DNA of 28,906 nt, taken from the sequence record KM389305.1; one strand, written 5' to 3'. The translations under genes and the position numbers were made by a program. The notes under the pieces were generated by a model that saw nothing but the letters and a program-made list of their open reading frames with translations, was not told where the DNA came from and searched no databases. Each line of letters begins with the position of its first letter. Positions within the stretch are counted from its first letter, which is position 1. The DNA is from Escherichia phage CBA6. Positions 21,325 to 23,499 of this stretch are shown here, one piece after another.

Positions 21325-21663
21325 CTAACTTCTTTCCTTGACAGAAGTGAAAGATTCTTTCCATCCTTTGAATTGTTCAGTCAGGGTTTCTTTCTCCATT
21401 TCCCCATTGGAAACGCTATGGATATATGCAAATGCGTCATAACCATAACCAGGCATTGCTTCACAAATACGAAGAGAGACCAATGTTTCGCCCACAGAAA
21501 CCAGATAATGATCACGACGATGGCTCAGAGGATAGTGATTGTCATGGAATTTGTCGATAACAACGCAGTTCTGTGGTTCGGCGTCAATTGCCAGCCCGTT
21601 GGCTTCGCTACCGCCGCGCCCAAGGGTGCATCCTGGGAATAATGTTTCTACGAGTGTGGTCAT
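21325..21663 (-). CDS. hypothetical protein (His-rich segment FHDNHYPLSHRRDH)
   Basis: 112-aa ORF, last gene of a tightly coupled minus-strand operon. Confidence 0.4.
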   Translation of the reverse strand: MTTLVETLFPGCTLGRGGSEANGLAIDAEPQNCVVIDKFHDNHYPLSHRRDHYLVSVGETLVSLRICEAMPGYGYDAFAYIHSVSNGEMEKETLTEQFKGWKESFTSVKERS

Positions 21664-21664
21664 A

Positions 21665-21874
21665 TTACTTCCTCATCATATTCAATAAATTAATTTTGCC
21701 CTTTGCTTCTGGGGCATACCAAACGTTCTGAGAGTGCCTCTTACAGCACGGACAATCCTTAATGGCAATTACACAGGGAGCCTTGTCCACGGCATATCCA
21801 GCGTCTTCGGCTTCCTTGACGGTGTTAAATGGCAAGTATGCACTTGTGCCTTGCCCTCCACATGAACATTCCAT
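21665..21874 (-). CDS. small Cys-rich protein
   Basis: 69 aa with CSCGG...C...CPCC; start overlaps the upstream stop by 1 nt. Confidence 0.4.
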   Translation of the reverse strand: MECSCGGQGTSAYLPFNTVKEAEDAGYAVDKAPCVIAIKDCPCCKRHSQNVWYAPEAKGKINLLNMMRK

Positions 21875-22074
21875 TAAAAATCCTCCTGAGGTGAATAGAA
21901 TATATCGATTTTCAACGCAAGGCGCTTAACACGGCGAGCGTGACGATGTTCTTTCTTTATCCCCTCGGAACGTTTAGCTACAGAACGACGATTTTTATAT
22001 TTTTCTGAAGGATATTTGTCGTGTCCTGGGCAACAAGATCCAGGATCATACACATCCTTAATTTCGCGCTTCAT
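21874..22074 (-). CDS. small basic protein
   Basis: 66 aa, Lys/Arg-rich, contains GSCCPGHD; start abuts the stop of the upstream small ORF (TGAATG). Confidence 0.35.
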   Translation of the reverse strand: MKREIKDVYDPGSCCPGHDKYPSEKYKNRRSVAKRSEGIKKEHRHARRVKRLALKIDIFYSPQEDF

Positions 22075-22191
22075 TCATTTCTTCCTCTTAAAGGGGATGA
22101 TCAGGGCTATGATTAACAGCATAGCTGTGATCACTCCGCATGCGATAAGACCGAATGCAAATGCTTTCAAAACAAATTGTAAAAGAATCAT
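22075..22191 (-). CDS. 38-aa single-pass membrane peptide (not in the ORF track)
   Basis: Hand-translated minus strand: MILLQFVLKAFAFGLIACGVITAMLLIIALIIPFKRKK; ATG overlaps the stop of the 397-aa gene (ATGA) and its stop abuts the next ATG. Confidence 0.4.
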   Translation of the reverse strand: MILLQFVLKAFAFGLIACGVITAMLLIIALIIPFKRKK

Positions 22192-23381
22192 AATTTCCTC
22201 AGTTTTGCCCTTGTTACCTGAGTTTGTTTAACATCTTTGAATTCGGTCAATTCTTTGACGCGACCACGAATGATCATATCACCTTCCAGGAATTCGGTTT
22301 CCATATAAGAAGTCTTCCATGTAATGGTATTGCCTTCTTTGGTTTTGAAAGTATACAGATACGTGTCACCATAATCAGATGAATACAGGAAAATCCTTGC
22401 TTCGAATTTGACTTGCACTTCTAACATTTCACCGACTTCCCCCACCCAATTTGATACAGAACGCATTTGGCGGGGGGTGTGGATATAATCATAATACTTT
22501 GCTGCTCCCCAACGAACTGTCGTGGAGTCCTTAACGAGGTGATATCCAGGTTCACACATACGTTTCAGACGAACGTTGAAATCATTGTTCTCAGACAACG
22601 CGGCGATGAAAAGCATCATATGGTACATCTCTGATTGAGCATCTTCACGGGCTTTAACTGCCTTGTTATAGAATATCTCAATGTCAGAACCTTTCTCCGG
22701 ACGAGTCCCGCTAGAAATATGACCAAGAACTCGACCAAAATCATCGCTCTTCATGCTCATACCAGACAGCAGAACCTGAAAGCAATTCCGCAAATAACCT
22801 TCAGTGTCAACGTAATCAGGTTCGTTCACTCGATAGATGCCTTCAGGGTCATCTTCATCAGGTGAGAACATTTCATGTATCGACATATAATAAGACATCA
22901 CGGCATCAAGCGATTTCTGATGAGGAACGTAATGGTGCATACAGCTACTGCCGACCAACATTTGAGCGCCGGATTGTTCGTTACGAACAACATATGTGTT
23001 ATGACGACGCACAGATTTATTACAATGCTCACACCAAGACACGTTTTCGGCTTCGAATCTTTGAATGAAATTAGGGTGGATGTCATCTGCTAATTTATTC
23101 AAGATGACTTTTGGATATTGGTGATTGAATTGTCCAATAATGCTCCACCCGCCGTAGGAAACAGGGCGGTCGATGCCTTCACCAGTGAGTGTACAATCCT
23201 GCCACCACCGATAGAATTTTTCACCAGTGATAGAATCGCGATGCTGGGTTTTGTATGGTTCGCTGTATTCGACAAGAGGGAACTCGAGATTCAGGCGCTT
23301 GGCCGTTCTTTCAAGTTTGGCCAGACGTTCCTTGACACGACCAATGTTGTCGATAGGAATACTGAAGGTCTTGGCTTTCAT
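22188..23381 (-). CDS. hypothetical protein, 397 aa, with a Cys/His cluster
   Basis: SD GAGAGG before the ATG; central WCEHCNKSVRRHN...GSSCMHHY cluster; C-terminal beta-rich region; no family assigned. Confidence 0.55.
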   Translation of the reverse strand: MKAKTFSIPIDNIGRVKERLAKLERTAKRLNLEFPLVEYSEPYKTQHRDSITGEKFYRWWQDCTLTGEGIDRPVSYGGWSIIGQFNHQYPKVILNKLADDIHPNFIQRFEAENVSWCEHCNKSVRRHNTYVVRNEQSGAQMLVGSSCMHHYVPHQKSLDAVMSYYMSIHEMFSPDEDDPEGIYRVNEPDYVDTEGYLRNCFQVLLSGMSMKSDDFGRVLGHISSGTRPEKGSDIEIFYNKAVKAREDAQSEMYHMMLFIAALSENNDFNVRLKRMCEPGYHLVKDSTTVRWGAAKYYDYIHTPRQMRSVSNWVGEVGEMLEVQVKFEARIFLYSSDYGDTYLYTFKTKEGNTITWKTSYMETEFLEGDMIIRGRVKELTEFKDVKQTQVTRAKLRKL

Positions 23382-23457
23382 ATTTGCCTCTCATGATATA
23401 GTGAAACTTTTCAAAGTAGGTTAAATGATAGCCGTATGTTTTATTGAAGTAAAGGTT

Positions 23458-23489
23458 TCAAATAAAAAGCCCAACAATTTGTTGGGCTT
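23458..23489 (-). terminator. rho-independent terminator (minus strand)
   Basis: AAGCCCAAC-AATTT-GTTGGGCTT stem-loop followed on the minus strand by TTTTTATTT, 10 nt after the stop of the 23500-23811 gene. Confidence 0.65.
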
Positions 23490-23499
23490 TCTGGGGGAT

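Follow-up and report, generated by a model that had tools for sequence, protein, structure and literature searches.

The closest described counterparts of the gene reported here are Vi01_050c, Marshall_158, the Dickeya phage protein QHB42145.1 and the protein family phrog_6569; all belong to one family with it, have the same length of 38 amino acids (aa) and occupy the same genomic slot, with no substantive difference. Among functionally described systems, Imm and Sp of phage T4 are superinfection-exclusion proteins, small envelope proteins encoded among the T4 replication genes; Imm has 83 aa and two helices, and Sp is a secreted periplasmic protein. The gene studied here is found in Escherichia phage CBA6 (KM389305.1), a ViI-like phage of the genus Kuttervirus, Ackermannviridae. 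The stretch of DNA that was analysed, hereafter the window, has 28,906 nucleotides (nt). The 3 kb around the peptide gene have 99.8-99.9% identity to the Salmonella phages vB_SenM-AKM_ssTn, Marshall and Maynard and to Escherichia phage ECML-4.

Translation of the minus strand from 22075 to 22191 gives MILLQFVLKAFAFGLIACGVITAMLLIIALIIPFKRKK, with 38 codons followed by TGA, exactly as in the original prediction. The contact with both neighbouring genes that it described was likewise found, with an ATGA overlap upstream and, downstream, a TGA that directly adjoins the ATG of the 66-aa gene (Table 1). The peptide gene is the second cistron of an operon with the order 397 aa, 38 aa, 66 aa, 69 aa (Cys-rich), 112 aa and DNA ligase, which is placed between the genes of a DnaB-like helicase and a helicase loader, in the replication module. 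Its GAGGA Shine-Dalgarno sequence is separated from the ATG by 4 nt and coincides with a ribosome-binding site (RBS) annotated in Marshall. At the other end of the gene, AAGAGGAAG (22089-22081) doubles as the Shine-Dalgarno of the downstream gene; the RBS of Marshall gene 159 is annotated at this position of the tail codons, and the arrangement is the same in all versions compared. The intrinsic terminator of the preceding transcription unit is also annotated in Marshall and ssTn. The 66-aa gene (phrog_5428) behaves like a small mobile or indel gene: some but not all Kutterviruses and Agtreviruses carry it, and where it is cleanly missing the peptide gene abuts the Cys-rich gene directly. The replication-gene block itself seems to be a hot spot for homing-endonuclease insertions. 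Such genes are inserted at differing points of the block, genus by genus, for instance between a regulator and the 397-aa gene in Limestonevirus (Dickeya phage Ds20CZ, locus L003 578-1180) and ahead of the helicase gene in Marshall (Marshall_153, locus L055 2747-3229).

Table 1. Features of the peptide locus; positions are counted from the first nucleotide of the window.
Feature	Position	Strand	Remarks
38-aa membrane peptide CDS	22075..22191	(-)	ATG 22191-22189, TGA 22077-22075; orthologue of Vi01_050c / Marshall_158; member of phrog_6569
Shine-Dalgarno GAGGA of the peptide gene	22196..22200	(-)	Within the last codons (Leu-Arg-Lys) of the 397-aa gene
ATGA overlap, 397-aa stop / peptide start	22188..22191	(-)	Signature of translational coupling
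Codons for residues 10-34, predicted TM helix AFAFGLIACGVITAMLLIIALIIPF	22090..22164	(-)	Hydropathy, apparent insertion free energy, column conservation, alignments
Codons for the C-terminal Lys-Arg-Lys-Lys tail	22078..22089	(-)	Sequence
397-aa gene, phrog_2319 (unknown function label)	22188..23381	(-)	First of the operon; OB-fold domains predicted
66-aa basic protein gene (MKREIKDVYDPGSCCPGH...), phrog_5428	21874..22074	(-)	Downstream of the peptide gene
69-aa Cys-rich protein gene (MECSCGGQG...), phrog_4789	21665..21874	(-)	Found downstream of the peptide gene in every genus
Intrinsic terminator AAAGCCCAAC-AAAT-TGTTGGGCTTT + T-run	23461..23490	(-)	Ends the preceding transcription unit
Sigma-70-like promoter candidate TTTACT-17-TATCAT	23425..23453	(-)	Before the 397-aa gene; consensus match only

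The comparative data identify the 38-codon frame as a genuine protein-coding gene, which purifying selection constrains as strongly as it does DNA ligase. Among the 123 ATG-initiated ORFs of 30-59 aa in the six frames of the window, it is the sole one whose 19-residue Kyte-Doolittle mean reaches at least 2.5 (2.88), and 100 mononucleotide shuffles of the window gave a mean of 0.05 such hydrophobic ORFs. With tblastn, 217 phage records were seen to contain the frame, 213 at a coverage of at least 80%; they come from phages of Salmonella, Escherichia, Shigella, Dickeya, Enterobacter and Yersinia. Twenty-seven related loci, representing 15 distinct nucleotide versions, were taken by synteny. As this extraction demanded an ATG at the ATGA position and a product of 30-50 aa, the ATGA and the intact frame seen in 27 of 27 loci are not independent observations. 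The frame was also intact in all 11 loci (11/11) that were fetched later, either with the peptide as tblastn query or through a look-up of identical proteins. The GAGGA, which was no selection criterion, is present in all 15 distinct versions, covering four genera. Comparing the peptide frame of the window with those of Aglimvirinae phages, we obtained a pS of 0.51-0.63, at which synonymous sites are near saturation, a pN of 0.08-0.11 and an omega (dN/dS) of 0.07-0.14. The pN of the peptide gene (0.11) equals the value for DNA ligase (0.116) and is half the 0.20 obtained with the 397-aa gene.

Judged by its layout in relatives, the start of the peptide gene is built for translation coupled with the preceding gene. 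In two distant members, L051 and L052, which were found independently, the Shine-Dalgarno has decayed, yet the peptide ORF begins within the final bases of the upstream gene as before; L052 keeps the ATGA, and in L051 the overlap is 13 nt, with the ATG at the same place. Because the overlap is kept despite the decayed Shine-Dalgarno, this fits coupling by termination-reinitiation. Conservation of the reading frame and of the start overlap in relatives, which the original prediction had named as a check, came out positive across four genera. A literature search covering Kuttervirus, CBA120 and Sa157lw transcriptomes, ribosome profiling, infected-cell proteomes and exclusion genes returned nothing bearing on the peptide ORF, and the one proteomics paper found dealt with purified virions only.

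These comparative data largely refute the reading that the ORF is not a gene, being a chance ORF, the opposite strand of a real antisense ORF, or a frame reached only by -1 frameshift, and we find it scarcely credible. It can appeal to two records in which an antisense ORF (22016-22231 on the plus strand, 71 aa) is annotated in place of the peptide, namely ChubbyThor gp84 (L010 3161-3352, minus strand) and IME250 gp027 (L007 3161-3343, minus strand), to the low omega of the antisense frame itself (0.14-0.24), and to the position of the peptide ORF in the -1 frame relative to the 397-aa gene. The antisense omega is, however, always above the sense omega, and stop codons interrupt the antisense frame in L016 and L024. 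Its length also varies (63, 71 and 115 aa) and it opposes a long block of genes on the same strand, whereas the start codon and length of the peptide, and in four genera its Shine-Dalgarno, are conserved. Its wobble positions are shared with the peptide gene, which accounts for the low omega, and the antisense frame stays open by chance. A -1 frameshift fusion with the 397-aa protein was rejected, as there is no X_XXY_YYZ slippery heptamer and the open codons upstream are variable in number, mostly 6-15. A known or structured RNA at the site was rejected as well, with no Rfam match and a fold z-score of -1.0.

The gene is not new, as it is already in GenBank/RefSeq records and in phrog_6569. 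The match to this family (PHROGs v4, unknown function label) has an E-value of 5.5e-27 and 94.3 bits, with residues 1-38 on profile positions 1-38 of 38. The peptide is annotated as Vi01_050c in Vi01 and as Marshall_158 (YP_008771776.1), with an RBS feature, in Marshall, and is labelled 'putative membrane protein' in UTK0005, Ds20CZ and the Dickeya phage entry QHB42145.1; the copy in the window differs from that of most Kutterviruses at residue 38 only (K instead of R). The original prediction had called the gene unannotated, which holds for some records, including the closest one, OR122688 (99.9% identical), but not for Vi01, Marshall, UTK0005 and Ds20CZ, nor in view of phrog_6569. In OR122688 the peptide gene and three neighbouring small genes are uncalled, and the resulting gap (L043 2005-2928, corresponding to 21325-22191 of the window) contains the 38-, 66-, 69- and 112-aa genes, each with a PHROG match. 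The record of EspM4VN also has no annotation of the peptide.

Other records carry names that do not suit the genes. In Guerrero the peptide CDS (GUERRERO_47, L039 2001-2117) is labelled 'HNH homing endonuclease', and the same product label apparently lies under the peptide match in AR2819, GEC_vB_N6, STP55 and sal1. This label probably spread from a 124-aa ORF of the Mansal-type phages in which a fragment of an HNH endonuclease is fused to the peptide. The tables of Guerrero, D5lw and ChubbyThor (L039, L041 and L010) name the 70-aa Cys-rich and 112-aa proteins 'DNA ligase', and proteins of 110 and 98 aa 'transposase' and 'methyltransferase'; such implausible names for small genes look like labels derived from neighbours or transferred.

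In order to define the reach of the family, a profile search of 5.8 billion proteins was made, led by a 46-aa member, and it gave 20 clusters, all of 37-46 aa. Their source names are only 'putative membrane protein', 'membrane protein' and 'hypothetical protein', and the long contigs on record for family clusters measure 70-160 kb. An exhaustive HMMER scan of 1.84 billion representatives returned four clusters only, of which two were new, both in the same slot. The whole family amounts to only some 20-25 sequence clusters. Every one is on a contig of Ackermannviridae type, the genomic slot never varies, and members are found in the genera Kuttervirus, Agtrevirus, Limestonevirus and Taipeivirus. 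A 38-aa sequence of the Taipeivirus type, 42% identical to the window peptide in a gap-free alignment, bridges the 46-aa and 38-aa forms. The slot lies after the phrog_2319 gene, with a start overlap, and before the Cys-rich MECSCGG gene; the peptide gene of the window occupies it, as do those of the 27 loci, which were extracted by it, and those of L045-L052, which were found independently.

Across 31 distinct sequences no change is seen at G14, G19, L25, K35 and R36, and hardly any at L15, A23 and L30. All invariant residues are present in the window peptide, and the predicted helix contains a G19xxxA23 motif. The conservation of the KRK tail has two possible causes, because the same bases (AAGAGGAA) are the Shine-Dalgarno of the downstream gene. 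As for named families, there was no NCBIfam match for the peptide. The only Pfam match was to DUF3149, a family of small bacterial membrane proteins, over residues 13-32 only and below the gathering threshold (13.5 against 23.2 bits, E 0.054), and membership was rejected as a similarity of hydrophobic composition. A lipoprotein or u-spanin reading of L15-I16-A17-C18 was also rejected. The lipobox [LVI][ASTVI][GAS]C is not conserved in the family, C18 being F in 8 of 31 members and position -1 being V in the EspM4VN type, and only 20 residues would follow C18, too short for a spanin to cross the periplasm.

Several predictions agree on the form of the product. From the family alignment AlphaFold2 predicts a single unbroken helix spanning residues 2-36 (pLDDT 90), and hydropathy (KD19 2.88) and a simple summed apparent insertion free energy of -4.75 place the transmembrane (TM) segment at about residues 10-34. 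With the KRKK tail, this bears out the single hydrophobic helix with a basic C-terminus that had been proposed. At 38 aa and with one predicted TM helix, the peptide falls within the size class of small membrane proteins (below 50 aa). There is no charged or strongly polar residue in the helix core, and in every subfamily the C-terminal flank has a charge of +3 to +4 and the N-terminal flank at most +1. Under the positive-inside rule a basic flank stays cytoplasmic, so that this excess of charge predicts an N-out/C-in topology, in which the N-terminus of about nine residues would be periplasmic and the KRKK tail cytoplasmic. The product would then be one alpha-helix in the inner membrane of the host. 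As a peptide of 38 residues is complete before it leaves the ribosome tunnel, its insertion would be post-translational, as has been demonstrated for YohP; for peptides this short, such insertion is described in PMC12648545 (section 10) and PMC7549839.

We infer that the peptide may pack in the bilayer against a larger membrane protein, the host's or possibly the phage's, and so alter its activity, beginning in early or middle infection. The target might be a transporter, the DNA-entry route (as in superinfection exclusion), a factor in division or envelope synthesis, or a defence effector in the membrane. The peptide would work on its own account, not as an anchor for its 397-aa neighbour. 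Helix packing within the membrane appears the likeliest mode of action, because there is almost no soluble domain, the core has no polar residues, and G14 and the G19xxxA23 motif are conserved. To a stand-alone, single-pass inner-membrane peptide acting by helix packing with a larger membrane protein, a reading built on sequence and structure prediction, we give an even chance. Two observations on the helix and its tail count against it. A conserved helical face is suggestive only, as the conservation moment of 0.163 over 31 sequences is not significant (permutation p = 0.11), and the conservation of the tail is confounded by the downstream Shine-Dalgarno.

The main rival of this helix-packing reading concerns the 397-aa neighbour. 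This protein is predicted to contain OB folds of the RPA/SSB type, a Cys/His cluster is conserved in it (C117, H119, C120 and C147; CxHC...C), and a sequence search with it against solved structures gave nothing meaningful (best E-value 0.21). Proteins of phrog_2319 are widespread, occurring in Ackermannviridae, in T4-like Aeromonas and Vibrio phages and in other groups, and have neither a family name nor a solved structure. The peptide could be a membrane tether or assembly partner of this OB-fold/zinc protein, the two being delivered together by coupled translation; by extension, a nucleic-acid-binding protein, and perhaps with it phage DNA or a replication/recombination intermediate, would be held at the inner membrane. 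We regard such tethering as unlikely, although three observations point towards it. No family member has given up the overlap of the peptide start with the 397-aa stop, including those whose Shine-Dalgarno has decayed. The partner is predicted to have RPA/SSB-like OB folds and is encoded in the replication module. Thirdly, other Ackermannviridae-type genomes have a membrane or signal-anchored ORF, unrelated in sequence, behind their 397-aa homologue; this arrangement hints at a functional connection and counts against a peptide that works by itself.

Examples of such ORFs behind a 397-aa homologue have 30 aa in Miltonvirus, 130 aa in Vibrio D504 and 97 aa in L038, and in Erwinia phage Bue1 there are two, of 105 and 37 aa, both ATGA-coupled and unannotated (L053 2688-3005 and 3002-3115). 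In Serratia phage 2050H1 the ORF directly behind the 397-aa homologue has 30 aa and is unannotated (L008 3222-3314). The small ORFs of Bue1 and 2050H1 have an N-terminal signal/anchor or a single TM helix. The coupled membrane ORF is replaced by non-homologous sequence in Miltonvirus, Nezavisimistyvirus, a Vibrio phage and an uncultured contig. The 30-aa ORF of Miltonvirus was rejected as a homologue of the peptide (hhalign probability 0.8%) and is a positional analogue only.

Against tethering, the favoured topology leaves only some 4-6 residues (PFKRKK) in the cytoplasm, a scant surface for contact. ATGA overlaps are also common across this operon and in phage genomes generally, a terminator, and not a membrane ORF, comes after the more distant homologues of the 397-aa gene (L031-L037), and the homologue in Aeh1 is in another context. 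The divergence of the two proteins is uncoupled too: identity to the window for the 397-aa protein and the peptide is 71% and 82% in Aglimvirinae, 68% and 37-42% in Taipeivirus, and 70% and 49% in EspM4VN.

The peptide is, moreover, kept in Mansal, D5lw and pertopsoe, which are without the 397-aa gene. These three have lost its codons 1 to about 387, replaced by a truncated HNH endonuclease that matches residues 1-77 of a 200-aa Limestonevirus enzyme at 58% identity. Their homology to the window restarts 30 nt before the peptide ATG, leaving Shine-Dalgarno and ATG intact, and they share a common junction with flanks that are 1.5-4% different (L040, L041 and L042 1743-2117). The three isolates imply that the 397-aa gene is apparently dispensable for laboratory growth. 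In this natural Kuttervirus lineage the HNH fragment reads in frame into the peptide, forming the 124-aa fusion ORF, and retention of the peptide could be incidental on that account. Taken together, membrane targeting of the 397-aa neighbour by the peptide is a weakened proposal. A broader version, in which OB-fold/zinc protein and coupled membrane ORF form a two-part device tying a nucleic-acid-binding protein to the inner membrane, we consider decidedly improbable; the 38-aa peptide would then be the minimal membrane subunit, and such a device could serve to hold phage DNA in place, either replicating or newly entering, or to catch the DNA of a superinfecting phage.

Helix packing must also be weighed against direct damage to the membrane. 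The minimal transmembrane cores of holins resemble the peptide in size, hydrophobicity and charged end, and the same likeness extends to the small membrane toxins reviewed in PMC12648545. A peptide of this kind would oligomerise and depolarise or permeabilise the membrane like a type I toxin or holin, with host shut-off or lysis timing as the outcome, the latter having been put forward in the original prediction. We hold this to be improbable. Charged or strongly polar residues that might line a pore are lacking in the helix core, and the constraint is specific to residues (G14, G19, A23 and L25), beyond what composition would call for. The peptide matches no lysis-category PHROG, its neighbours are genes of the replication module and not of a holin/antiholin context, and no lysis genes (endolysin, holin or spanin) are annotated in the approximately 29 kb of Marshall that match the window. 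A role in lysis timing is therefore unlikely. The three roles offered in the original prediction, namely superinfection exclusion, lysis timing and membrane targeting of partner proteins, are generic ones.

A very improbable alternative to helix packing makes the peptide the small membrane part of a phage Psp-like stress module, related to its partner as PspB/PspC are to PspA. It stems from the many relatives whose corresponding operon also includes a PspA/IM30-family gene with membrane-protein genes behind it; the PspA-like gene of Miltonvirus and Erwinia Bue1 comes directly after the small TM ORF(s). The assignment of EspM4VN gp013 to PspA/IM30 has a Pfam score of 45.2 bits against a cut-off of 33.9. 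The window, in contrast, has no trace of a PspA-like gene or its membrane neighbours, and a PspA-like gene is found in 43 Salmonella-phage records as against 160 with the peptide. The peptide is, besides, equally conserved with and without the cassette (pertopsoe with it, Mansal without). An obligate link between the two was rejected, the cassette being missing in the window and in most peptide-bearing Salmonella-phage records. The cassette is of interest for its own sake. Its PspA/IM30 gene encodes 202-210 aa and is followed by one or two membrane-protein genes (gp013-015 of EspM4VN, L005 3938-5315), and further copies are in L045-L049, L008 3378-3989 and L053 3179-3811. A tblastn search found PspA/IM30-family genes in 233 phage records, T4-like phages included, and a phage-encoded homologue of the phage-shock protein may merit study of its own.

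As a discovery the peptide gene has little weight, since it was already catalogued. Its value is for curation: it is a very short ORF under real selection at the protein level, which several records omit, mislabel, or replace by a spurious antisense ORF. If its target were found, a phage example would be added to the small-membrane-protein modulators, and the target might also explain why a membrane ORF is kept behind the gene of an OB-fold protein in Ackermannviridae.

Compared with known systems, the peptide would be, like T4 Imm and Sp, a small envelope product from the replication neighbourhood of a large virulent myovirus, but the T4 proteins are larger and unrelated to it. It does not belong to an exclusion family (T4 Imm/Sp, P22 SieA and others), as phrog_6569 is its only PHROG match at E <= 0.01 and there is no exclusion PHROG among its matches. 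TisB, Hok and holins are similarly short and hydrophobic with a charged terminus; the peptide differs from them in having no polar or charged residues to line a pore and no lysis-cassette context. Gp11 of Staphylococcus phage PhiNM1 (PMC11237401) is likewise a small membrane protein from a block of phage genes not concerned with lysis, and by analogy a role of the peptide as a host-takeover effector is plausible, although Gp11 has no homology to it and comes from another phage and host group. The modulators AcrZ, MgrB, MgtS, KdpF and CydX, as reviewed in PMC12648545, have no sequence relationship to the peptide, which is phage-encoded. They nevertheless share its build, with fewer than 50 aa, a single TM helix and almost no soluble part, and contacts within the membrane and post-translational insertion would be expected of the peptide as of AcrZ/MgrB-type modulators.
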